64,000 bases of DNA from an uncultured Nitrososphaerota archaeon (GCA_963703285.1 OY969807.1:896001-960000), one strand, 5' to 3'; positions 8,598 through 54,595 are shown, counted from the stretch's first letter. Made by a program: numbers and translations. Notes: generated by a model not told the origin, from the letters alone.

Positions 8598-8905
8598 GTC
8601 TGCCTGTCAAGCAGGTACCCTGAGGAGCCGCCGCCCAAATTTCCTGGTTTGTCCCCCTCCTTGTGGGTACGGCCATCGACCTAGATTTGACAGTTGAACC
8701 GGCCCTCCTGTCATCCCCGTCGTAGCAATCCAACCGCTGGATCCTCAGACATAGCGAAAAGATGCGGCCTATTCGACGTTTCGTGTGGAAAGATTGAGAG
8801 GATCCACGGGGCGGAAAGGGCAAGCGAGCCAACCGGAAGAATCCGAGGAATCGAGTGATACACTGAGGCAGAAGCCTTATTACGCTTGCGACTCGCACTA
8901 AAGCC

Positions 8906-9166
8906 ATGCCTACCTTCCTCATGAAATGCCCGAGCTGCGGAAAGCACTTCGACGTCGAGCGGACAGGGGATCGGGTGGAGAAGGAGATCGTGATGGAAGA
9001 CAAGAGCCGAGAGTTGATGACCGAGAAGATCGGCCCAGTCTACTCCCCAAGCGTGACGGATGACATAGACGAGACGGTTGATGAGCAGGTCCCGGTCGAG
9101 GTCAAGACCTACAAAGAGACATACACCTGCAAGCATTGCGGGTACACCTGGACAGAGGAGAGATAG
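8906..9166 (+). CDS. Small zinc-ribbon protein
   Basis: CPSC ... CKHC pairs. Confidence 0.75.
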   Translation: MPTFLMKCPSCGKHFDVERTGDRVEKEIVMEDKSRELMTEKIGPVYSPSVTDDIDETVDEQVPVEVKTYKETYTCKHCGYTWTEER

Positions 9167-9357
9167 GGCTCGAGGCTCGAGATTGTCCCCTTCGGTACGG
9201 AAGAGTTCAGTCTACTACACTGAACGCGGGCGCCGCCATTTCGTGCTAAGGGGATGCATGACGTGAGTCTCCCTTTTGCTACGCATCTGTTGCGCCAACG
9301 AGCTGCGACACGTTAGGTACTCTAGGAGCATTTTGAGAAGGGGAGCCGGCTATATCG

Positions 9358-10002
9358 TCAGGACCTGCTGACGTTTTGCATGCGCTTTCCCGTGACCGTG
9401 TACGCAACAGACTCCCCCACGTCCTCCGCATGGTCGGCTATCCTCTCGATGTACCGAAGTATCAGAGTCTCGATGAAGTAACACTTCAAGTCAACACCGT
9501 CCTCTTGGTTGATTCTCCGAAGACTGTTCCGATACAGCTCGTCGACCACGTTGTCCATGGCGCCTAGCCGTCCGGCGAGTATCACGTCTCGCTCCGTGAA
9601 GGCTTTGAGGCTGATTCGAATCATCTCGGAGGCCTGCTTTCCGGCCGCCTCTATATCGGCCTTCTCGCAGTTTGCAACGCCAGTGAAGATGGAGAGGACA
9701 TCCGCAATGTCGTAGGCGTACCGTCCGAAGCGGGAGAACCCGTAGGCGATTTCCATGCTCGAGGTGATGAACCGGAGATCGATTGCGACGGGCTGGTACC
9801 TCGCTATCAGCTCCGTGGCCAGGTCGTTGACCTCCTCCTGCTTCACACGGAGCTCCTCCGAGTTGTCGTACACCTGCGTGCGTACGTTCGTTCCCTTGGT
9901 GTAGGCCTCTATCGCGATTGCGACGGTCTTCTCGGATAGTTCACCCATCTGGATCAGGAGGTTCTTCAGTTTCTCCAGACCCATGTCCATTAGTCTAGCC
10001 AT
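9358..10002 (-). CDS. phoU: Phosphate transport regulator PhoU
   Basis: YQPVAIDLR, ERIADHA motifs; follows pstB. Confidence 0.92.
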   Translation of the reverse strand: MARLMDMGLEKLKNLLIQMGELSEKTVAIAIEAYTKGTNVRTQVYDNSEELRVKQEEVNDLATELIARYQPVAIDLRFITSSMEIAYGFSRFGRYAYDIADVLSIFTGVANCEKADIEAAGKQASEMIRISLKAFTERDVILAGRLGAMDNVVDELYRNSLRRINQEDGVDLKCYFIETLILRYIERIADHAEDVGESVAYTVTGKRMQNVSRS

Positions 10003-10015
10003 CTTTACGATGCAC

Positions 10016-10840
10016 CTAACCGAACTTCCCAGTGATGTACCGCTCCGTCAGTTCCTTGCTCGGCGCCTCGAACATCTTCTTCGTCGTGTCGTACTCCACG
10101 AGTTCGCCGAGGTAGAAGAACGCGGTGTAATCCGCCACTCTTGCGGCCTGCTGCATGTTGTGCGTGACGATTATGATCGTGAACTCCCGCTTCAGCTCTG
10201 CCATGGCCTCTTCGATCTTGGTGGTCGCCGTGGGGTCAAGGGCCGAGGCTGGCTCGTCCATCAGGATGATCTCGGGCTCCACCGCGATGGCTCGGGCGAT
10301 GCACAGTCTCTGCTGTTGTCCACCGGACAGCGCCGCCCCGGACTTCTTCAGTTCGTTCTTGACCTCGTCCCAGAGGAAAGCAAGCCGGAGGCTCCTCTCG
10401 ACAACCTCATCCAGCAGCTTCTTGTTACGCACTCCGTTGAGCTTCAGGCCAGCCGCCACGTTGTCGTAGACAGACATGGTGGGGAACGGGTTGGGCTTCT
10501 GGAAGACCATCCCTATCCGGCGCCGGATTCTATCGGCGTTGACGCGCTGACCGTAGATGTTCTCCCCGTCGAGGGTGACCTCCCCTTCCACGTAGGCGCC
10601 TGGGGTCAGTTCGTGAAGCCTGTTGAGGCACCTGATGAAGGTCGTCTTCCCGCAACCGGAAGGGCCCATCAGGGCCGTGATGCTTCGGTTGTTGAACGAG
10701 AGGCTGATACCCCTCAGCACCTGCACCGCCCCGAAGCCTGCTATCAGATTCTTGGTCTCCATCTTGGCGCCTCCGTTGTTGACTTGGCTCATAATCGGCA
10801 GGTCTGCGTCATTCTTGACGTCTTCGCTCTGAGATTCCAT
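10016..10840 (-). CDS. pstB: Phosphate ABC transporter ATPase
   Basis: [37 protein letters not shown]. Confidence 0.97.
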
Positions 10841-43935: not shown

Positions 43936-44451
43936 TTGGATTTCTCAAGAGATGTGACTAGCGCCAGGAAGCGCGCAATAAGTGGGACCTCAATCGCCGG
44001 TGTGGTCCTCCTCGTAGTGGTCCTTGTGGTCGGGGCGGCTTACCTCTTTGCGAACCCCCCGGCGTCTGGAGCGACGGCTTCGTCAGGTCAGTACACCTTC
44101 ACAAACTACGGCCAAGTGACTTCGCCATCGACGGCTAGCACTTCAGCAGCGCCCACCTCTCCGACGATCACTGACGTGTACATACCCAACGACAATGGAT
44201 ACCCGTTCGCCCCGTTCCAGCCCCAGGTCGTAACTGTGGTCATAGGCGTCAACAACACGGTGGAATGGATCAACCAGGACGTTCTGGTCCACGACGTCAT
44301 CTCCAACGGCGGCTTCTTCGCCTCAGGGGATCTGACTCCGTTGACGGGGACCTACCAATTCACCTTCACACAGGCCGGGACCTACCCATACTACTGCTCT
44401 TACCATCCCAGCCACACGGGCGTGGTAGTTGTCCTGAACGCGGCCAGCTAA
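43936..44451 (+). CDS. Membrane-anchored cupredoxin (plastocyanin/azurin-like)
   Basis: NNTVEWINQD..HDV; YYCSYHPSH; class III-like signal RKRA-ISG. Confidence 0.85.
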   Translation: MDFSRDVTSARKRAISGTSIAGVVLLVVVLVVGAAYLFANPPASGATASSGQYTFTNYGQVTSPSTASTSAAPTSPTITDVYIPNDNGYPFAPFQPQVVTVVIGVNNTVEWINQDVLVHDVISNGGFFASGDLTPLTGTYQFTFTQAGTYPYYCSYHPSHTGVVVVLNAAS

Positions 44452-44606
44452 AACCCCAGGTCGACGCTTCGCGGGCGGTCACAGGCCACCCATGTTGGGA
44501 GAATGACACCGCCTAGCGGAGCTGAGGGAACGGCAGGAGTGGGCAGAAGCAGGGACCCGCATGGCGGATGCTGGCTCCTCCGTCTGCCGAAAACGTTGGA
44601 GAACCT

Positions 44607-44858
44607 TCAGGCGCTGCTTGCCTTAGCCTTGTAAGCCTGGGCGCACTCCCTGGCGTGGAAGGTCATCTCCTTCTTTCCTATCGTCTCCACGTAGGGCTCG
44701 TAGACTATGGCGCCGCCGCAATAACCGCATTTCCGCGCCTTGAAGGCCACGGCGCACTGCTTGGCATGGAACTTGTACTTCTTTCCTCCGATGGTCTCTG
44801 TATACGGTTCGTATGCTATGATGCCACCACAGAAACTGCACTTCGGCTCTTTTGCCAT
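44607..44858 (-). CDS. Tandem TRASH/YHS-like metal-binding protein
   Basis: Two ~36-aa repeats KCxxCGGxIxYEPYxETIG...FHAxxCA. Confidence 0.8.
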   Translation of the reverse strand: MAKEPKCSFCGGIIAYEPYTETIGGKKYKFHAKQCAVAFKARKCGYCGGAIVYEPYVETIGKKEMTFHARECAQAYKAKASSA

Positions 44859-45028
44859 TGCGTATCGCGTCACCGGCACCACAGGTTCGAGCATATAAGG
44901 ATGAACGAGCTCCTTGAGCCCCAAAGTCAGTCAGGGCATCAGTGAGCGAGCCCCGCCGTCCGCTGGCGCGCGCACGGTCTTATACCGGCGACGGCCTCTG
45001 CGAGGGGCTGTAGCCGCTCGGTGAGAAT

Positions 45029-45493
45029 ATGGAGGAGAATCGGAATCCGGAAAGCCATACGTGGTCGGTGCGTGTCCGCCGCGTTGATGACCTCGAGTCG
45101 CGGGCCTACGCAGGAAAGAACGCCTTCTCGGTAGGGAAGCAGGCGAGCTTCTCGGGAGAGGAGGCGCTCCCGACCGCGGTGGAGTATCTCCTGGGCGCCC
45201 TAGGAGCGGACATGCTCAGCGGCTTTCAGCGTCAGGCGGCCAAGCGCGGCATAGCCATCCAGGGGGCTGAGATGGTAGTTTCGGGTCGCCTGGACAATCC
45301 TCTGGTCTTTCTCGGAGTGATCGGCGCGGAGGGCAAGCCAAGTTTCGCTTCGATCACCGCGACCTTCTACGTGGGCGCCGACGCCGACGAGCCCGTGCTG
45401 GAGGAGGCGTGGCGCGCCACAATCGCCCTCTCTCCTCTGGCCAGCACGCTGGAACGCTGCATTCCGCTCAAGCTCAGCATGCAGTTGACGTGA
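45029..45493 (+). CDS. OsmC-fold protein lacking both redox cysteines
   Basis: PTAVEYLLGALGAD and SPLASTL where OsmC/Ohr have Cys. Confidence 0.75.
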   Translation: MEENRNPESHTWSVRVRRVDDLESRAYAGKNAFSVGKQASFSGEEALPTAVEYLLGALGADMLSGFQRQAAKRGIAIQGAEMVVSGRLDNPLVFLGVIGAEGKPSFASITATFYVGADADEPVLEEAWRATIALSPLASTLERCIPLKLSMQLT

Positions 45494-45662
45494 AAAACCC
45501 CCGGCCCAGCCCGTCGTGTTGCAACCACAAGCAGATGCGAAGACGCCCGCCGCGAATCTTTCGCCAATCTCGGACCGACCCTGCAAGAACTCGACTTCAG
45601 ATGGCACTTCTCTGCGCCTAGTGAGAGCTTTATAATAGGGTAAGCAGAATAGGTTACGTAAC

Positions 45663-46823
45663 ATGTCAGCATATCGATTGAATGCGAATCAGATGGCGGT
45701 GGTAGAGAAGGCGAGGAAGATCGCCGACGAGGACATCGCGCCGCACGCAGGGGAAGTGGACGCAGAGGGCCGCTTCCCCAAGGAGGGGATGGAGGCGCTA
45801 GGACGTGCAGGCTTCCTCGGTCTCAACATCCCGAAGGAGAAGGGGGGCATGGGCCAGGGCCTGCGCGTGGCGGCCGCGGTGCTTGACGAGATTGCCCAGA
45901 GGGACGCCTCCCTCGCAATGGTCTACAAGATGCACCTCTGCGGGTGCTCCGCTTATGTCGCATTTCCACAGGTCGGCGAGAAGTATTTCCCCCAGGTCGT
46001 CGCCGGAAAGCACCTCTCCACTCTTGCCTGGAGCGAGTATGGATCCCGCAGCCACTTCTGGGCGCCCGCAAGTCAGGCCGCCGAGAGGGACGGTCAAGTC
46101 GTGCTCAACGCTCAGAAGTCCTGGGTGACCTCGGCCGGCGTGGCCGACGGGTACATCGTCTCCACCCGCACGGCGGGAGGCACGGGAGCCACGGACACCA
46201 TGCTTTACCTGGTCCTGAAAGAAGACGGGGGGATGCGCGTCTCAGGCAAGTGGAACGGATTAGGGATGCGCGGAAACGCCAGCAACCCTATGGTACTGGA
46301 GAACTGCGCCATCCCGGCCGACCGGGCGCTCTGCAAGAAGAGCGAGGGGTTCCCTACCATGCTCGGGGTGGTCCTGCCCTGGTTCAACCTGGGAAACGAG
46401 GCGATATCGGTGGGTATAGCCGAGGCCGCCGTGGCTGCGACGACGACACACCTCACTGCGAGGCGGTTCTCGGACATGAACAACGCGCCCCTGTCAGACC
46501 TGCCCACCCTGCGGGCGAGGCTGGCGCAGATGCGAATATTCACAGACACCGCGCGGGCCCATCTCGTCTCTGTGATCGACTCCGTCGAGCAACCCGGCCC
46601 CCAGACGACGCTGTTGGTCCTCGAGTCCAAGGCCGTCGGCGCTGATGCAGCCCTCAACGTTACAGACTTGGCCATGAAGGCCTGTGGCGGCGCGGCCTTC
46701 AGCAAGCAACTCACCCTCGACCGAAACTTTCGTGACGCAAGGGCAGGGTACGTGATGGGCCCAACCTCGGACGTCCTGCAGGAGTTCATAGGCAGGGCAC
46801 TCACGGGGATGCAGCTGTTCTAG
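45663..46823 (+). CDS. Acyl-CoA dehydrogenase-fold flavoprotein
   Basis: LAWSEYGSRS, KSWVTS, GLGMRGNAS, CGGAAF, RNFRDARA. Confidence 0.9.
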   Translation: MSAYRLNANQMAVVEKARKIADEDIAPHAGEVDAEGRFPKEGMEALGRAGFLGLNIPKEKGGMGQGLRVAAAVLDEIAQRDASLAMVYKMHLCGCSAYVAFPQVGEKYFPQVVAGKHLSTLAWSEYGSRSHFWAPASQAAERDGQVVLNAQKSWVTSAGVADGYIVSTRTAGGTGATDTMLYLVLKEDGGMRVSGKWNGLGMRGNASNPMVLENCAIPADRALCKKSEGFPTMLGVVLPWFNLGNEAISVGIAEAAVAATTTHLTARRFSDMNNAPLSDLPTLRARLAQMRIFTDTARAHLVSVIDSVEQPGPQTTLLVLESKAVGADAALNVTDLAMKACGGAAFSKQLTLDRNFRDARAGYVMGPTSDVLQEFIGRALTGMQLF

Positions 46824-46840
46824 GCCGGACGGCGACGCCG

Positions 46841-47668
46841 ATGAGCGCGCGAACCCGCGTGGGGGCGGTGGTCTACGACCCCAGGGTCGTGACCATATGG
46901 GACATCGTCAAGGGCTTCTTCGCCTCCCGGGGGTACGCGATGGACTGCGAGTTCTACGACACCTACGAGCTGATGACGGACGCCCTGCTGAATGGCAGCA
47001 TACAGATAGCATGGAACTCGCCCCTGGCTTGGGTGGACGTGGTCAGACGGACTCACGGTGGCTGTAGGGCCATCGCGATGCGCGATACTGACAGGGACAG
47101 GAGGACGTACTTCGTCGCACTGAGAAGTAGCGGCATGGAGAGGGTTGAGGACATTCGGGGGAAGGTCCTGGCGACCGGAGCGCGGGATTCACCGCAGTCC
47201 TACCTGATACCGCTACATCAGCTGTCGCAGCGGGGCCTCGTGGCGGACCGCGACTTCAAGGTTCGCCGCTTCGACCTGCTGGTGGGGAAGCACGGCGACC
47301 ACGTCGGTGGGGAGCTGGAGGCTCTGCGAAGCGTCCAGCGAGGCGAGAGCGACGCCTGTGCGGTCCTCGACCTCAACTGGGCACGGTGGCAGTCGGACGG
47401 GACGGCTGACCCTTCCGCCCTGGTCCCGTTGGGCACGACCGACCCCTTCGACCACTGCAACTTCAGCGTCCTATCGGCCTTCCCCGCCCACGAGGAATCG
47501 GGGTGGACGAAGACGCTGTTCTCAATGAGATATGACGTGCCTTCACACCGCGAGATGATGGACCTCGAAGGGCTGAAGGCCTGGCTCCCTGGCCGGACCT
47601 CCGGCTACTCCGCGCTTAGCGGCGCCGTCGAGGAACAGAATTTCTTCGGGGATAGCCTAGGTCGATGA
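46841..47668 (+). CDS. PhnD-like substrate-binding-fold protein with no signal peptide
   Basis: IAWNSPLAWV, DSPQSYLIP, GKHGDHVGGE; N-terminus not hydrophobic. Confidence 0.75.
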   Translation: MSARTRVGAVVYDPRVVTIWDIVKGFFASRGYAMDCEFYDTYELMTDALLNGSIQIAWNSPLAWVDVVRRTHGGCRAIAMRDTDRDRRTYFVALRSSGMERVEDIRGKVLATGARDSPQSYLIPLHQLSQRGLVADRDFKVRRFDLLVGKHGDHVGGELEALRSVQRGESDACAVLDLNWARWQSDGTADPSALVPLGTTDPFDHCNFSVLSAFPAHEESGWTKTLFSMRYDVPSHREMMDLEGLKAWLPGRTSGYSALSGAVEEQNFFGDSLGR

Positions 47669-48825
47669 CCAGGGACCGCCTCTTCCCCGTGACGGTGGTG
47701 GGCAGCTGGCCCCGTACCCCCCGAGTCCTGCAGGCGCTGCGGCGGAGGCAGATGGGAGCAATCCCGGAAGAGGCTTTCGACCTGGTGGCCGACGAGGCCG
47801 TGCTCGAAGCCCTCGAGTCGCAGGAGGCGGCGGGTATCGACATTGTCACGGACGGGGAGCAAAGGCGGGACAACTTCTATTCGTTCGTGGCGGGGAAGCT
47901 GGACGGCGTGAGGCTGATGACGCTCGCAGAGATGCTCGAGGTGGTCGAGGACAAGGCCGCCTTCGAGCGAATCCTACAGACTCTCGACGTCCCCGCCTTT
48001 ACGATGAGCACGGCGACGTGCGTCGGCGCGATAAAGCGGCGTCGGGCTCTCGCCCTCGAGGAATACAGGTTCCTTCGGAAGCACACGTCTCGTCAGATCA
48101 AGGTAACATTGCCCGGGCCGTACCTCCTGACACGGTCCATGTGGGTGAAGGAGCTCTCCCCGGGGGCATACGACTCGAAGGAGGATCTAGGGGAGGACGT
48201 CGTTCGCATCCTCAGGGAGGAGGTCTTCGCGCTCAGAGACGCAGGAGTGGACTTCATCCAGTTCGACGAGCCGGTCCTGACCGAACTCGTCTTCACGCAG
48301 GGTCAGACGCGCACATTCATGTGCGCGGCCCTCGCGGCCCGCCACGACCCCGCGGAGGAGCTCGAGTTTGCGACACGCCTCATGAATCGGGTCGTCGAGG
48401 GGCTCGACGGGGTGCGGGTCGGAATCCACATCTGCCGGGGGAACTGGAGCCGGAACGAGGACGTCCTCCTGAAGGGGTCTTATGCTCCACTCGTTCCCTA
48501 TCTCAAACGAATGAACGTGCGGCAATTCGTCCTCGAGTTCGCAACTCCGAGGGCGGGGGGGCTGGAGTCCGTCGCAGAGGTGCTCGAGGGAAGGGAGCTC
48601 GGGCTGGGAGTGGTCAACCCGCGCACACAGAACGTGGAATCGCCGGAGGAGATTGTTCAGAGGGCGCGGGAGGCCCTACGCTACGTGCCGGAGGAGCGGC
48701 TGTTCCTCAACCCCGACTGCGGGTTCGGGACCTTCTCGCGCAGGTCCCTCAACACCCCGGAGGTCGCAACCAAGAAGCTCGCGGCCATCGTGCTGGCGGC
48801 CGAGATGCTCAGGGCTGGGGCGTGA
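47665..48825 (+). CDS. Core (single-barrel) cobalamin-independent methionine synthase-like Zn thiol-alkyltransferase
   Basis: VVGSWPR, TDGEQRR, QFDEP, HICRGN, E, NPDCGF. Confidence 0.88.
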   Translation: MTRDRLFPVTVVGSWPRTPRVLQALRRRQMGAIPEEAFDLVADEAVLEALESQEAAGIDIVTDGEQRRDNFYSFVAGKLDGVRLMTLAEMLEVVEDKAAFERILQTLDVPAFTMSTATCVGAIKRRRALALEEYRFLRKHTSRQIKVTLPGPYLLTRSMWVKELSPGAYDSKEDLGEDVVRILREEVFALRDAGVDFIQFDEPVLTELVFTQGQTRTFMCAALAARHDPAEELEFATRLMNRVVEGLDGVRVGIHICRGNWSRNEDVLLKGSYAPLVPYLKRMNVRQFVLEFATPRAGGLESVAEVLEGRELGLGVVNPRTQNVESPEEIVQRAREALRYVPEERLFLNPDCGFGTFSRRSLNTPEVATKKLAAIVLAAEMLRAGA

Positions 48826-48869
48826 AGGTCCGAGCCGAATCGAGATTCGAAAACTGGTCTGGAGCGGAG

Positions 48870-49529
48870 TCAGCGCCTGGGTGCCCTGCGCGGCTTCCCC
48901 ACGTGGTCCGCCACGATCTTGCCCTCCGCCCGCCGCAGGACTTCGTCCAGGGTGGATGGGGAGATGCCCAGCTTCTGGGAGACGTCCTTCAGGCTTGTCT
49001 CGCGCGGGAAGCGGTAGTATCCATCCTCCTCGGCCAAGCCGATGGCCCGCTCCTGCTCATAGGTCAGAGAACGACTCCCTGTCTGCTTCCCGACCTCCGT
49101 GACCGTCGCGGCTATACCGTCACGTTTGAGCTCGGCCATGAAGCTCTTGACTGAGATCTTGCCGGGGAAGACCACCTGCCATCTGGTCGCTTTGTCTTCT
49201 CCCGGGACGGCGACCATGGCGCAGTTCGTGCAGAAGCCCATCATCGACGATAGCGCCCTGCACACGGGGGAGGTCTTTGTGACTATTATCCCCGATGCCC
49301 TGTGCTTATCGAACACGGTGAAGCTGGTGTAGAGTATGTTAGGCTCGGCGCTTATGAGCCTGAGCACGTCCTTCACCGAGACGTGGCTCGTGATCTCTAT
49401 GAGCTCTATCATCCCCTTGCGACCATATGGGCGACAATCGACCATCTTGATGACAGCATTGGTTTTGCTCAGGACGGACGCAGCCCATTTGTCTACCTCG
49501 TCCTCAGCCTCGATCGTGACTTCTTTCAA
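48870..49529 (-). CDS. HTH-10 (bacterio-opsin activator-type) transcriptional regulator
   Basis: LT..Q..A...GYY.FPRE.SL..VS..LGIS.ST..EVLRRAE.KI. Confidence 0.9.
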   Translation of the reverse strand: MKEVTIEAEDEVDKWAASVLSKTNAVIKMVDCRPYGRKGMIELIEITSHVSVKDVLRLISAEPNILYTSFTVFDKHRASGIIVTKTSPVCRALSSMMGFCTNCAMVAVPGEDKATRWQVVFPGKISVKSFMAELKRDGIAATVTEVGKQTGSRSLTYEQERAIGLAEEDGYYRFPRETSLKDVSQKLGISPSTLDEVLRRAEGKIVADHVGKPRRAPRR

Positions 49530-50703: not shown

Positions 50704-50958
50704 CTACAGGAGCAGAGGATATGGCGGCTCACCAGCGAAGAGGATACAGATGTCCAGGTACTTGATCAGCTTTGGCCTGAGCATGTACCGGTCCATGTCG
50801 TCTGCAACCACCTTGCCCTTGGTGGGTTGAAAGTTCTTGTCCCTTGCGGTGACGACCATGCCCACCCATCTTCCCTTGTATCTCTCCTTGATTTCGCTGA
50901 TTGTAAGCTCCTCTGGTTCTTCTTTGCCCCTGCCTGGCGGGACCGTGGTCGAGCTCAT
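50704..50958 (-). CDS. Small DUF5678-like protein
   Basis: EIKERYKGRWV...GKVVA pattern; immediately upstream of the retropepsins. Confidence 0.65.
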   Translation of the reverse strand: MSSTTVPPGRGKEEPEELTISEIKERYKGRWVGMVVTARDKNFQPTKGKVVADDMDRYMLRPKLIKYLDICILFAGEPPYPLLL

Positions 50959-50991: not shown

Positions 50992-52104
50992 TCAACTTGT
51001 GCTGGCCGAGGTTGTGAACGTGGTCGGGTTGGTCGCGGTCGGGGGTTGGACACCGGGCGATGCGCTGGGAAGGCTACGAAGTGCGTTAGTGACGGCGCCC
51101 ACCAGGATGTACTGCCTGAATTTGTTGTTGCCAGACTCGTTCTGGTTGTTGCCGTTCGCCCCTACGGCCAGGTGCGTCAGAGGGCTCGAGCCATCGGTCG
51201 CGTGTGCCGCAGCCGCTCCGATGACAGACTCCGTTAGCGTCTTGCCGTTGATTGCGGACTCTACTGAACCCGCCCTGATTGGGTGGGTCGCCACGTGGCC
51301 CAAGACGACCTTGGAGCTGGAGACGGTGCTGCCGCTGAACTGCGCGACCACGGCCGCGCTAGCGAGCGGGAAGTCCACGGCAGTCCTGTCTGCGATTCTG
51401 AAGTACGACGACTCCGATCCCGAAGCCGGCGCGGGTACGTTGATCGACGTTATGATCTCGTTGTAGCGGAGGCTGTTTTCCTTGATGCGCCCGTCGACGA
51501 TGCTGACACCGGGGAGGAACTGCTCCATCGTCAGGGTGTGGGAACCACCGGGCCCCTGAACCGTCAGCGTCGCGCCGAGAGCCATGAGTGGTGCCGAGAG
51601 GTCGCCCGCGTGGACAGCGTAGCACAGGTTCCCACCGAAGAGGCTGTGGTAGTAGCGGTTGTCGCCGTTGACCGCGTAGCAGACGGTTCCTCCGTTCCTC
51701 CAGCAGTCGTAATTGTTGCGAAGGTACCAGCACCAGACCTCCTGGGAGATGTCTCCCCCGACGGTGGCCTGGTTTGCTATCTGGACCGGGTGGCCGCTCC
51801 CGGCCTGGGCTAGCGCCGGGTAGTACTGGATGACGTTTGGATCAGCCATCACCTGGCTCACGTTCGTGGTCGCGCCTATGGTCAGGCCGGAGCTCGAGTT
51901 GTAGGTCACGCCGTTGAGTCCGAGCTGTGTGATGTCGATGACGGTCGTTGGGGTGAGTAGCTCGATTTGGTTCTTCATCTGGTGGAGCAGGTCCGTCCCT
52001 CCTGCGATCACCCTTGCGCTTCCTCCGTACTGGGTCAGAAGTGAGACTGCGTTGTCGATCGAGGTCGGCTGCAGGTATCCGAATTTGTTTAGTTCGTTTC
52101 TCAT
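50992..52104 (-). CDS. Xanthine oxidase family FAD-binding subunit (PaoB/YagS-like, with Cys cluster insert)
   Basis: IAGGTDL, ATVGGD, WCWYLR..CWRNGGTVCYA..CYAVH. Confidence 0.9.
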   Translation of the reverse strand: MRNELNKFGYLQPTSIDNAVSLLTQYGGSARVIAGGTDLLHQMKNQIELLTPTTVIDITQLGLNGVTYNSSSGLTIGATTNVSQVMADPNVIQYYPALAQAGSGHPVQIANQATVGGDISQEVWCWYLRNNYDCWRNGGTVCYAVNGDNRYYHSLFGGNLCYAVHAGDLSAPLMALGATLTVQGPGGSHTLTMEQFLPGVSIVDGRIKENSLRYNEIITSINVPAPASGSESSYFRIADRTAVDFPLASAAVVAQFSGSTVSSSKVVLGHVATHPIRAGSVESAINGKTLTESVIGAAAAHATDGSSPLTHLAVGANGNNQNESGNNKFRQYILVGAVTNALRSLPSASPGVQPPTATNPTTFTTSASTS

Positions 52105-52117
52105 TTCTATTCACCAC

Positions 52118-54595
52118 CTATAGAAGGCCCTTCGACTTCATATAGTTCAGGGCGTCGACTATGTCCTCCTTCCGTGCGGGCAGTTTGGTGAACCTGTAGC
52201 CACCGAGCGCGTTGGAGAGGGCATTGAGGATCATGGGGATGACGCTCATGAGCACGTTCTCGCCGATTCCCACCGCGCCGAATGGACCGTAGGGGTCGTT
52301 GTACTCCGTCCACAATGACAGAGCGCGTTCGGGCGCCTGGTAGATGGTCGGAATCTTGTTGTCGAGGTAGTTGGGGTTGAGTGTTGCTCCTGAGTACTTC
52401 AGACCGGTCGAGGAGTCGTTCAGGCTCTGTTCGAAGAGCGCCTCACCGATTCCCAGCCCGATCATGCCACCCTGGTTCTGGCCATCGGCGCCGAGGGCGA
52501 ATATGACGCGTCCGATACCCAGGGAGCTTACGTAGTCTATGACGCGCACGTCAGCGGTCTCGGTGTCGACCTCTACCTCGCAGATTTTGGTGCCACTTAC
52601 ACGGTACGCGGTCTTCGGCGGAGGCGTGTAGTTCCCGATTCCCGTCAGTCCGGCGGTTGGTAGGAGAGCGCACGCGGCAGCGAACGTAATCTGGTTGCTC
52701 GGATTGGTCTTGTCATAGATGATTCCGGACGGCTGGCCCGTGAAGCCGCCGCCGAACGCCAGGTTGGTCGCTTTGGTCCCTGGGGCCATCTTGGGCACCA
52801 GGAGAGGGAACCACTGAGTGGCCAGGTTCGCGGCTGCGGCCACTAGTCCCATGCCTCCGTTGCGAGTCATCCTGCTGCCCGCCGTGACTCCGGTGTCCGT
52901 CGTGAGCGTGGTGTCCGAGTAGACACCCTTCAGGTTGTTCATGTTCGGTTGGCCAAGGAGCTCGGCCGCGATGATTGCCAGGGACGTGACGGTGCCCCCG
53001 CCGTGGTCCATCCCTCCGGAGTACATGGTGATTGTGCCGTTCGGAACCACGTTGATCTGGCCCGTGTCCGGCGCTGAGAGAGAGCCCTTGGATCCCGAGG
53101 TGAGTGCCATCCCCACGCCCCTAAGCTTCTTCCCCGTCCCGACCGTCTCGCCGGAGTTGGTGAGCACGTTGCTGGGCGTGGCCCATCCCTTCCACCTTCC
53201 GCTCCAGTTGAACGCCTTGGTGGCGTTGAGGTGGTCTTGGGGTTGCCCGTACCCGCTGAAGGGGTAGCCCGTGCTGTGGTCGAACGCGGTGTTGGGGTAG
53301 ACGGTTGGAGGCGAGGTGGTGTTGTCGGTGTAGGCCGCGGTCCTCATGTTCTGGAGCCTGAATTGGGATGGGTCCATGTTGTACGCCTCAGCGAGCATGT
53401 CTACGGCCGTCTCCACGAAGTAGGAGTTCTGGCTCTCGCCGACGTCCCGCATCGGGCCGGCGAGGCCGTAGGCGTCGCTGTTGGAAGAGTAGCTGACCAA
53501 GTTGACGTTGTTGACGTTGTAGATGACGTAGAACTCTCCCAAGTCGGAGTTCGCGCCTCCGTTCGCGCCCACGTTGGCGAAGACCTCGCCTTTGAACGCG
53601 GTGAGAATGCCGTTCTTGCCTGCTGCGGTGATATAAGCGCGCTCCGGGAAGCGGTTGGACGTGGCGAGAGAGTTGGTGTATCTCGTCTGGAGGAACTTCA
53701 CGACGCCTCCGGCTTTCTTCGACATCGCTGTAGCGATGATGTACTCTTCTCCGGAAGATTTGTTGCCTAGTCCGTTGCCGATTGAACCGTTCTCGAAGCC
53801 GCCGAGAGAGGTCCTCACGTTGACGTTGGCCGCGGGGACGCCGAAGTAGTTCGCGACGGTGGTCTTGATCGAGGCGGCGTACTGGGTGTTGCCCCAGACG
53901 TTGATGATTCCCTCTGAAGTCGAGGCCCACTGCGCGATCAGGCCGCGGGGCTCGATGTCCATGTGCTGGATGAACTGGGTGTCGAGCCTTACGGTGACGA
54001 TCTGGTCGGCCGCCGCTATGGCTGCGTCCGCATCGCCGAACTGCATAACCGCCGTGGACGGCTGGGCGACGCCTTCCGTCACGGACCCGCCGGGCGAGTT
54101 CCCGCCGGGCCAAATCTGTGGGGCCGTCGATTGTAACGCCTCCTCGACGTCGAAGACATAGGGGATTGGAGTGAAGTCGACCTTCACTAGGCCAATCGCG
54201 TCGTTGAGCAGGTCGGGACTGTCCGCTCCGACCGCTACGACGGGACAGCCGGAGTAACGCGCCTGCGTCGTTGGAAGCGGGCCTCTGAACCTGTTCCCGG
54301 AGGTCGAGTAGTAGGTGTAGGGCGGGAGGTATTCGTAGTCATAGCCCGTGAGGGTCGTGGCTCCGGCGGCCTCCGCAGCGCTAACGTCTATGCTATTGAT
54401 CAGGGCGTTGGGGTAGGGGCAGGTCACGTAGCCCATGTAGACGAAGCCCGTTGTTGCCGCGATGCCGACGTCCGTGGGATGGATGTCCGATGTGAACTTC
54501 TTGGTTCCTTGGATCTTGGTCAGGGTATCGCGGGCGACGACGCTGGCGTTGCCGACCAGAGCAGGACCAGAAGTCGAACTCATCGCTCTAGGCAC
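52118..54595 (-). CDS. Xanthine oxidase family molybdopterin-binding subunit
   Basis: QH..IEPRG, TQ, DHGGG, TAGSR, EVEVDTET, GPFGAVGIGE. Confidence 0.9.
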   Translation of the reverse strand: MPRAMSSTSGPALVGNASVVARDTLTKIQGTKKFTSDIHPTDVGIAATTGFVYMGYVTCPYPNALINSIDVSAAEAAGATTLTGYDYEYLPPYTYYSTSGNRFRGPLPTTQARYSGCPVVAVGADSPDLLNDAIGLVKVDFTPIPYVFDVEEALQSTAPQIWPGGNSPGGSVTEGVAQPSTAVMQFGDADAAIAAADQIVTVRLDTQFIQHMDIEPRGLIAQWASTSEGIINVWGNTQYAASIKTTVANYFGVPAANVNVRTSLGGFENGSIGNGLGNKSSGEEYIIATAMSKKAGGVVKFLQTRYTNSLATSNRFPERAYITAAGKNGILTAFKGEVFANVGANGGANSDLGEFYVIYNVNNVNLVSYSSNSDAYGLAGPMRDVGESQNSYFVETAVDMLAEAYNMDPSQFRLQNMRTAAYTDNTTSPPTVYPNTAFDHSTGYPFSGYGQPQDHLNATKAFNWSGRWKGWATPSNVLTNSGETVGTGKKLRGVGMALTSGSKGSLSAPDTGQINVVPNGTITMYSGGMDHGGGTVTSLAIIAAELLGQPNMNNLKGVYSDTTLTTDTGVTAGSRMTRNGGMGLVAAAANLATQWFPLLVPKMAPGTKATNLAFGGGFTGQPSGIIYDKTNPSNQITFAAACALLPTAGLTGIGNYTPPPKTAYRVSGTKICEVEVDTETADVRVIDYVSSLGIGRVIFALGADGQNQGGMIGLGIGEALFEQSLNDSSTGLKYSGATLNPNYLDNKIPTIYQAPERALSLWTEYNDPYGPFGAVGIGENVLMSVIPMILNALSNALGGYRFTKLPARKEDIVDALNYMKSKGLL

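Follow-up and report, generated by a model that had tools for sequence, protein, structure and literature searches.

A widespread gene module that couples a core methionine-synthase-like enzyme to an OsmC-like protein, with relatives that are probably selenoproteins

A conserved gene module and its types

The window analysed here is a stretch of 64,000 nucleotides from an uncultured Nitrososphaerota archaeon (GCA_963703285.1 OY969807.1:896001-960000), and at its positions 45,029 to 49,529 it carries four co-oriented genes, which encode an OsmC-like protein, a protein of acyl-CoA dehydrogenase (ACAD) fold, a PhnD-like protein (hereafter substrate-binding-protein-like, SBP-like) and a MetE-like enzyme, followed by a convergent HTH_10 regulator gene. 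All five had been proposed from the sequence alone in a first-pass annotation and all were recovered in place by open reading frame (ORF) listing and Pfam matches above cut-offs (Table 1). The stop codon of the PhnD-like gene overlaps the start codon of the MetE-like gene by 4 nt (ATGA), and the cluster and its flanks have an even G+C content of 0.59-0.65 in a host genome that consists of one contig of 2.25 Mb, rated 96% complete, and that its nearest homologues likewise place in Nitrososphaerota. The four genes belong to a widespread and undescribed module, made up of a core methionine-synthase-like enzyme with accessory proteins.

Table 1. Positions in the window of the module genes, the codon for Cys220 and the two flanking genes
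Feature	Position	Strand	Basis
OsmC-like gene	45029-45493	+	PF02566, 32.2 bits
ACAD-fold gene, of the Rv1679/FadE16 kind	45663-46823	+	ACAD Pfam domains PF02771, PF02770 and PF00441, 72/56/55 bits
PhnD-like (SBP-like, Rv1680-like) gene	46841-47668	+	PF12974 (Phosphonate-bd), 101 bits
MetE-like gene, 386 aa	47665-48825	+	PF01717 (Meth_synt_2), 125.6 bits
Cys220 codon TGC of the MetE-like gene, motif RTFMCA	48322-48324	+	sequence read
HTH_10 regulator gene, convergent, lineage-specific neighbour	48870-49529	-	PF04967, 56.9 bits
TRASH-domain protein gene, divergent	44607-44924	-	PF08394, 39.5 bits

A scan of one genome per species gave at least 600 matches to the pattern. Confirmation succeeded for 484, and the best 80 loci were kept. 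Neighbours were counted over these 80 nearest MetE-like loci using tblastn and ORF clustering, and because only the nearest relatives are covered, the frequencies are not valid for the whole family. An OsmC-like gene was found beside the MetE-like gene in 70 of the 80 loci, an SBP-like gene in 52 and an ACAD-like gene in at least 44, and several of the missing partner genes coincided with contig ends. The pair of MetE-like and OsmC-like genes is the invariant core of a module that is found in Nitrososphaerota, Acidobacteriota, Chloroflexota, Armatimonadota, Planctomycetota, Actinomycetota, Gemmatimonadota, Myxococcota and other phyla. Since the arrangement recurs in dozens of loci from many phyla, it is far beyond chance. 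A lack of co-occurrence in other genomes had been named in the first-pass annotation as the finding that would tell against its reading; the four families are instead tightly clustered in most of the 80 loci. The module is rare at the same time, being present in 4/251 and 3/151 genomes of two phylum samples and in 6/151 genomes of the host's order.

Beyond the module genes and spurious antisense ORFs, no family was common to more than 16 of the 80 loci. The next commonest neighbours were rhodanese (16 loci) and TusA and DsrE (5 loci each), which are seen in loci that lack the SBP-like and ACAD-like genes, and residue 61 of the OsmC-like protein follows the same division. In type I, to which the window belongs, this residue is Asp or Glu in 48/48 rows with SBP-like or ACAD-like genes, while in type II it is Cys in 23/23 rows, accompanied by rhodanese in 14, by TusA-DsrE in 5 and by neither in 4. 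One type II locus, L066, comes from a genome flagged as unpublished (G037), without which the count is 22/22. The MetE-like proteins of type II fell into one clade (SH-aLRT 96) of an 84-row tree, in which the five archaeal type I proteins stood apart from 52 bacterial ones; this is a quick tree only, and it includes two junk antisense rows (L011_Ib and L007_Ib). The ACAD and PhnD-like pair stands in for the rhodanese, TusA and DsrE carriers of the sister type: in type II, and in the probable selenocysteine-type clusters described below, these members of persulfide relays are encoded in a single string together with the OsmC-like and MetE-like proteins, whereas the type I cluster of the window lacks them and has the SBP-like and ACAD-like genes instead.

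A second pair of OsmC-like and MetE-like genes was seen in the host outside the window, at C1:1318976-1320677 (L081:6932-8678, minus strand). It is type II-like, with Cys61 in the OsmC-like protein and a MetE-like protein 53% identical to that of the window, and it is flanked by PheRS and Toprim genes, without a gene for a sulfur carrier next to it.

The MetE-like enzyme and its partner proteins

The MetE-like protein had been described as keeping the zinc ligands of methionine synthase while lacking the folate-binding barrel, and both points hold. Its residues were mapped via alignments to 3rpd and 1xpg, and H255, C257, E291 and C352 (the zinc ligands) were invariant or nearly so in sets of 12 and 31 homologues, as were the homocysteine-binding residues S14, E65 and D201, the roles being those given for the zinc ligands and homocysteine contacts of MetE and MesD in section 11 of PMC7857596. 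The catalytic C-terminal barrel is present, the PF01717 score (Table 1) standing against a gathering score of 21, while PF08267 reached only 17.6 bits against a cut-off of 27 in a protein of 386 residues. Neither a full-length nor a split folate-dependent MetE is encoded here, the sole PF08267 gene of the host lying 620 kb away at C1:321779-322414. The nearest solved relative is 3rpd, the MesD structure (102.5 bits, E=2e-28), and homologues about 70% identical occur in Acidobacteriota, Latescibacterota, Actinomycetota and other phyla. Homologues number about 7,500 among the scored candidates. A search for long fusions, to which any of about 540 aa would have been invisible, gave two proteins (702 and 758 aa), neither of which has a further Pfam domain. 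No protein of the module matched a curated equivalog at its cut-off.

The family is further marked by an insertion that follows the FDEP strand, which bears the homocysteine-binding Asp, and that holds an invariant Cys220 within the motif RTFMCA. Cys220 is thereby placed in a loop beside the zinc and homocysteine site. The insertion is missing both from the MesD structure 3rpd and from the housekeeping MetE of the host. Judged from this pattern of conservation, Cys220 is a candidate extra nucleophile or catalytic residue specific to the family.

The OsmC-like protein was said to have Asp and Ser at both redox Cys sites, and alignment to 9wo1, 1lql and 2opl places D61 and S135 (S135-P136) there. 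It shares with the OsmC/Ohr thiol peroxidases their fold and Pfam family, and the helix with the first Cys and the Cys-Pro site align, but it lacks both of the catalytic cysteines of a peroxidase and is paired with a MetE-like gene. Within the family R15, G102 and S135 are invariant and E52 and E81 nearly so, and the second Cys site is Ser in 70/72 sequences. Arg15 and Glu52 are presumably the Arg and Glu that flank the reactive Cys in Ohr. The predicted complex of the MetE-like and OsmC-like proteins scored 0.03 against a mark of 0.32, a value that says nothing on binding.

The ACAD-like protein contains the three domains of its fold but not the canonical catalytic Glu: the 'iyegt' of 3pfd aligned with 'vmgpt', so that Glu is replaced by Gly, as had been proposed from the VMGPT motif in place of YEGT. 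At the alternative base position on helix G, which we take to be that used by IVD and LCAD, the same alignment gives Phe. Residues conserved in the family are S124-E125, S128-R129-S130, F132-W133, M365 and P367. Among the 47 rows that hold both OsmC-like and SBP-like genes, 42 also have the ACAD-like gene.

As the first-pass annotation had it, the PhnD-fold protein has no signal peptide and no ABC partners and carries a GKHGDH loop. There is no hydrophobic N-terminus and strand 1 begins at residue 5 of the AlphaFold model, no ABC transporter gene was present among the annotated ORFs at 40.6-54.6 kb of the window, and the loop was found and is conserved. Thus the protein, which is presumably cytoplasmic, has the fold of a periplasmic PhnD-type protein without the signal peptide or the adjacent ABC permease and ATPase. 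The AlphaFold2 model (pLDDT 94.8) gave PhnD, PtxB, HtxB, ArrX and AioX as top Foldseek matches, the listed binders among them having TM-scores of roughly 0.64-0.8, with E-values of 1e-21 to 1e-15 for PhnD, PtxB and HtxB, and the modelled fold matches that of binders of small tetrahedral or pyramidal oxyanions. Because H151, D153, E158, H205 and C206 are invariant both in the module and in stand-alone ACAD-SBP pairs, this His/Asp/Glu/Cys set resembles a site for catalysis or for carrying a group more than it does a simple ligand pocket. Phosphonate or methylphosphonate was considered as a theme for the ligand and dropped, since the neighbourhoods show nothing for phosphorus metabolism (a single PhoX flank, in L031).

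Both of these accessory proteins have their best families in NCBIfam by a wide margin. The ACAD-like protein scored 412.9 bits with NF049984 (Rv1679, FadE16; cut-off 600; runner-up family 157) and the SBP-like protein 231.3 bits with NF049985 (Rv1680; cut-off 400), and 'Rv1680 family' was also the sole label that ESM Atlas returned for the latter. A third family of this set is Rv1681 (NF049973). The ACAD-like and SBP-like genes of the window are neighbours, like those of the actinobacterial loci L083-L088; in contrast, the scores of the window proteins stay under the curated cut-offs and the actinobacterial pairs lack MetE-like and OsmC-like partners. The ACAD and SBP pair is a portable module: the SBP-like gene was present in 9/301 sampled Actinomycetota genomes, and six Actinomycetota loci (L083-L088) hold an adjacent ACAD and SBP pair without MetE-like or OsmC-like genes. 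The pair is adjoined by an Rv1681-family radical S-adenosylmethionine (SAM) gene in L084 and L085, by a gene for a Cys-less TusA-like N-terminus fused to a ferritin-like di-iron domain in L083 and L088, and by a TusA-like tblastn match next to a weak AurF-like Pfam match in L086, while L087 has neither partner. For Rv1680 the only functional label found was the structure-based 'putative phosphonate transporter component' (PMC8562490), and the module offers a first functional context for the Rv1679/Rv1680 gene pair.

The fusion protein itself is about 420 aa long and R2lox-like in its di-iron part, is encoded downstream of the pair (L083:8729-9970; L088:6713-7993, minus strand; 37% identical to each other) and has no Pfam family above cut-off. 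The TusA-like and AurF-like region of L086 lies around 8840-10057.

The sources label homologues of the enzyme methionine synthase, and this label, together with the existence of ACAD and SBP pairs without a MetE-like gene in Actinomycetota, would suit a spare methionine synthase that uses a pterin or corrinoid protein encoded elsewhere, with the other three genes an unrelated canonical peroxidase, acyl-CoA dehydrogenase and transporter component. We regard this explanation as highly improbable. It is largely refuted by the co-occurrence of the genes across phyla and the co-variation of OsmC residue 61 with the accessory set, and it sits badly with an OsmC-like protein without both Cys, an ACAD without its catalytic base, an SBP without signal peptide or ABC partner, and an enzyme with no folate barrel and a residue, Cys220 or its selenocysteine equivalent, that is missing from MetE and MesD.

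Probable selenocysteine-type relatives and the selenium and sulfur neighbourhood

Residue 220 was Cys in the MetE alignments of 80/80 genome loci, two extra short pieces giving '-' and 'T'. The window protein, with its TGC codon, is of this Cys form and is not a selenoprotein. In L091, however, which comes from a genome of the phylum Armatimonadota, codon 220 is an in-frame TGA, within a TusA-DsrE-TusA-OsmC-MetE string. The order of genome G611 holds no other genome in which conservation of the TGA could be followed. Further loci of this kind were found in metagenomes (L097-L216) by a degenerate motif pattern with TGA, which gave at least 120 loci and in which TGA is therefore pre-selected. 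Among the matches listed, 120/120 encode a MetE-like protein 51-64% identical to that of the window with its sole stop at 220, and 51 can be aligned through the TGA over 360 aa or more. A hairpin, CCCGC-N6-GCGGG, lies 13 nt 3' of the TGA, and in 70 distinct listed sequences its stem is near-invariant, third codon positions included, the changes amounting to ten G-U pairs and one double change, while adjacent codons vary freely. Since an in-frame TGA with a conserved hairpin is the expected signature of a bacterial selenocysteine (Sec) insertion element, the TGA-type relatives are probably selenoproteins with U220.

The branch that contains Sec is apparently a selenoprotein family not listed so far. 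Neither the module nor a MetE-like selenoprotein was described in the literature searched; the terms 'methionine synthase', 'homocysteine' and 'MetE' are absent from the main text of four papers on selenoproteomes (a 2026 and a 2022 review, deep-Sep of 2025 and GOS of 2008); and no NCBIfam model (June 2026) was reached by the Cys or Sec forms. The Sec-type members would add an abundant selenoprotein family in a fold not known for selenocysteine, and the natural exchange of Cys and Sec at an active-site residue peculiar to the family is a direct experimental handle.

Among the listed Sec-type loci with at least 600 bp upstream, an OsmC-like gene was present in 47/50; with at least 1500 bp upstream, DsrE and TusA were present in 31/33; and one locus (L158) has an SBP-like gene. 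The Sec-type OsmC-like proteins have Asp, Ser or Ala at position 61 and, in 42/47 of those listed, a Cys near position 70.

The order in these clusters is TusA-DsrE-TusA-OsmC-MetE(U220), examples being L121:2036-4585 (minus strand) and L091:5658-8188. A further Cys lies near position 113 of the Sec-type OsmC-like proteins, and the L121 and L154 translations have extra Cys past the last zinc ligand (DCGFGCFANRC).

Sulfane carriers at this frequency, with rhodanese in 16/80 loci (14/23 type II rows) and TusA and DsrE in 5 genome loci and in 31/33 of the listed Sec-type ones, bring up the possibility of a homocysteine or selenohomocysteine synthase independent of pyridoxal phosphate (PLP), in which the relay would bring a persulfide or perselenide to Cys/Sec220, where it would expel the leaving group from an activated homoserine bound in the amino-acid site while zinc stabilises the thiolate being formed. 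The amino-acid-binding residues are conserved, and known selenoproteins of the rhodanese and DsrE kinds provide a precedent for Sec at a position that carries sulfane sulfur. No metA, metX or thrB gene was seen among the annotated immediate neighbours, however, type I has no persulfide carrier, the chemistry would be unprecedented in the MetE fold, and the sequence is silent on whether the site accepts a homoserine ester; we therefore consider such a synthase quite unlikely.

Flanking genes were annotated for 104/144 listed flanking ORFs and, in more detail, for six loci. A gene for SelD (349-408 bits; cut-off 125) lies directly upstream of the module, divergently in L018 and on the same strand in L020 and L044, and in L005 the genes for SenA (523 bits against 420), SenB (two ORFs) and EgtD, a selenoneine cluster, follow directly downstream on the same strand. 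The module is linked to selenium by these SelD and selenoneine gene neighbours. Over whole genomes, SelD was present in 46/51 that carry the module (45/50 without the unpublished G037), the five without a match being the host, three other Nitrososphaerota and one further genome, against 181/251 in a sample of the Chloroflexota phylum (177/247 without four unpublished genomes) and 82/151 in the phylum to which G014 belongs. This enrichment, uncorrected for relatedness or assembly quality, is real, though modest.

The L005 locus (L005:462-8327), from an Acidobacteria metagenome-assembled genome, holds OsmC, SBP and MetE genes with no ACAD-like gene, between an OpuAC-permease fusion and senA-senB-egtD. 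Its SenB is split over two ORFs in the ORF calling, of which the second runs into EgtD.

Sulfur-related flanks were each seen in single loci: a methionine gamma-lyase-like gene (L032), a NifS-like desulfurase (L014), a DsrE, and a distant MtoX-like (methanethiol-oxidase-like) protein in L073 with 124 bits against a cut-off of 650. A FAD disulfide reductase gene flanks the module in L011.

The module is not simply the methionine synthase of its carriers. No MetH was found in the host genome, but a split MetE, a pterin-binding MetE-like protein and an MTHFR-like gene are encoded at C1:321-325 kb, and full-length MetH was present in 26/50 other carrier genomes, several Armatimonadota having a split MetH; on these grounds complementing a missing methionine synthase was rejected as its only role. 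The host genes in question (L082:3462-7854), outside the window, comprise a MetE N-domain-like gene, a MetE C-domain gene, a fusion of MetE-like and DUF4346 (pterin-binding) domains and the MTHFR-like gene, a weak match, with a DDE transposase gene directly upstream; they form the probable housekeeping methionine synthase cluster.

Proposed chemistry, known systems and the wider locus

An undescribed organosulfur or thioether pathway, or a new methyl-donor route to methionine, had been suggested for these genes. As a kind of reading this is partly supported, since the genes do co-occur in other genomes and no curated equivalog matches. As the best explanation of the whole we propose, tentatively, that the MetE-like enzyme and its partners carry out a folate- and corrinoid-independent methyl transfer to the sulfur of homocysteine via a Cys/Sec220 relay.

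The enzyme would make or break a carbon-chalcogen bond at the homocysteine sulfur, and its most likely reaction would be transfer of a methyl group without folate or corrinoid, with methionine as the product. Cys/Sec220 would act as a covalent relay, either for the methyl group or for the sulfane sulfur or selenium left from a methylated sulfur or selenium donor. In type II the relay may run onward via Cys61 of the OsmC-like protein to rhodanese or the TusA/DsrE carriers. In type I we would guess that the SBP-like protein, with its invariant His-Cys pair, and the base-less ACAD prepare or present a small, oxidised organosulfur or organoselenium anion, such as a sulfinate or seleninate. Either accessory set would supply the donor or remove the chalcogen by-product. 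Judging by the neighbouring genes for SelD and selenoneine synthesis, the bacterial product is probably passed on to selenium use, while in this archaeon a sulfur version may be expected, since no SelD was found.

That the donor is a methylated sulfur or selenium compound is a guess. It was chosen because of the single-locus neighbours (the gamma-lyase, the MtoX-like protein, SelD and the sen genes), the resemblance of the SBP-like fold to oxyanion binders and a precedent from Kountz and Balskus, in whose preprint Zn methyltransferases of the same superfamily are proposed, in the portions cited, to demethylate methyl-selenides (PMC10418091). A second precedent is MesD, which according to sections 12-13 of PMC7857596 requires an unrelated partner and oxygen and often has a flavin reductase nearby. 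A more specific version, in which Sec/Cys220 is a protein-borne substitute for cobalamin that passes methyl groups from sulfur or selenium compounds to Zn-activated homocysteine, as a fifth route to methionine, and frees sulfide or selenide onto carriers that feed SelD and selenoneine synthesis, seems to us doubtful.

Several points weigh against the proposed methyl transfer. A thioether or selenoether of Cys or Sec is a chemically poor methyl donor. The supply of methionine does not depend on the module, as the split MetE of the host and MetH in 26/50 carriers indicate, and when 10 bacterial loci (131 kb) were scanned at Rfam gathering thresholds, neither a riboswitch for SAM or cobalamin nor a T-box turned up near the module; the only matches were a tRNA, the end of an rRNA and a c-di-GMP aptamer unrelated to it. 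The enrichment of SelD is modest against baselines of 54-72% and is confounded by relatedness and by the choice of long-contig loci; of five further carriers from the phylum samples four have SelD and one (G610) gave no match; and the lack of a SelD match in the host and three other Nitrososphaerota carriers means that selenium supply is not a universal role. The adjacency of SelD could also reflect a selenoprotein family rather than selenium as a substrate. The simple two-type picture is incomplete, because the Sec-type OsmC variant has Asp, Ser or Ala at 61 and a Cys near 70. Finally, glutathione peroxidase (L010 and L013), thioredoxin (L036), rubrerythrin (L006) and superoxide dismutase (L066) genes in the flanks would fit a reductase equally well.

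An alternative is a redox enzyme that would reduce the bound amino acid in an oxidised or conjugated state, for instance free methionine sulfoxide or a homocysteine disulfide or persulfide, with zinc as Lewis acid and Cys/Sec220 as the attacking residue; the OsmC-like protein and TusA, DsrE or rhodanese would supply resolving and recycling thiols, and the flavoprotein of type I would be the electron source. To our knowledge no enzyme of the MetE fold performs redox chemistry. The OsmC fold is a peroxiredoxin-type fold, but the type I OsmC partner has no Cys altogether and flavoproteins of ACAD fold are untypical as reductases of thiol systems. The redox-type flanks (L010, L013, L036, L011, L006 and L066) speak for such an enzyme, as does the coexistence of the module with MetH or split MetE, although each of these neighbours occurs in single loci. 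Sec/Cys pairs mark redox residues in nearly all prokaryotic selenoproteins, according to the sections cited of PMC13188914 and PMC9312934; in contrast, the intact zinc-thiolate set H-C-E-C is a signature of alkyl transfer (PMC7857596, section 11). On balance a redox role is unlikely.

The closest known system to the methyl transfer proposed here is MesD-MesX (Price, Deutschbauer and Arkin 2021, PMC7857596). In the sections cited, MesD has the core MetE barrel without the folate domain and the same zinc and homocysteine residues, needs an unrelated small partner, often has a flavoprotein nearby, and occurs in carriers most of which have MetH or MetE. The differences are that the partner in the window is of OsmC fold while MesX is DUF1852, that the Cys/Sec220 insertion is not in 3rpd, and that the module adds SBP-like and ACAD-like proteins or persulfide carriers. 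The relation is only distant, 102.5 bits against at least 390 bits in the cited part of Price et al., as compared via 3rpd and not ACIAD3523. No MesX gene was seen among the module neighbours by Pfam annotation or 80-locus clustering, and a search with PF08908 (DUF1852/MesX) gave no match in the host but none in 14 control genomes either. No gene for a corrinoid protein was present among the annotated neighbours. OsmC, rhodanese and acyl-CoA dehydrogenase go unmentioned by Price et al.; the methyl donor of MesD was not yet identified in the sections cited of that 2021 paper, and later work resolving it was not found.

The type 1 mlp clusters of Kountz and Balskus (PMC10418091) are, in the portions cited, similar in that MtaA-like enzymes and cobalamin-independent methionine synthase share a superfamily (UroD), that a role in methyl-sulfur or methyl-selenide metabolism is proposed, and that they show a marked preference for genomes equipped with selenium machinery, with sel genes as neighbours. 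By the same portions, however, they depend on corrinoid (a corrinoid protein and its activase) and belong to anaerobes, mostly Firmicutes, while the enzyme of the module has the MetE rather than the MtaA fold and is carried by, among others, soil Acidobacteriota, Chloroflexota, Armatimonadota and Nitrososphaerota. Core methionine synthases that lack the folate domain raise the question of the methyl source, and the module is a further such system, with defined partners, in phyla of soil and sediment. If the selenium link holds, it would be a new route that joins organic sulfur and selenium compounds, methionine and selenium assimilation.

Of the genes around the module, the HTH_10 regulator is found in the same place, with 79-80% identity, in the two closest archaeal loci (L001 and L002), and gave no tblastn match (E<=1e-5) in the remaining 78/80 loci. 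The TRASH-domain gene lies upstream of the module in L001, L002, L004 and L012 only, and any tie to the module is tentative. At 43936-44924 of the window a cupredoxin-like protein with an N-terminal membrane anchor adjoins this protein, which has two TRASH domains; both genes are syntenic with the module in L001 and L002, which hints at a copper-related neighbour set. A search of sequencing runs gave four soil-metagenome DNA runs from one study, with shares of up to 0.49, and no RNA run was listed. Beyond the regulator lie two small tandem genes with retropepsin-like aspartyl protease domains PF13975/PF13650 (49851-50653, minus strand), an 84-aa ORF without a family (50704-50958), and the FAD-binding and molybdopterin-binding subunits of an enzyme of the xanthine dehydrogenase/CO dehydrogenase family (50992-54595, minus strand).

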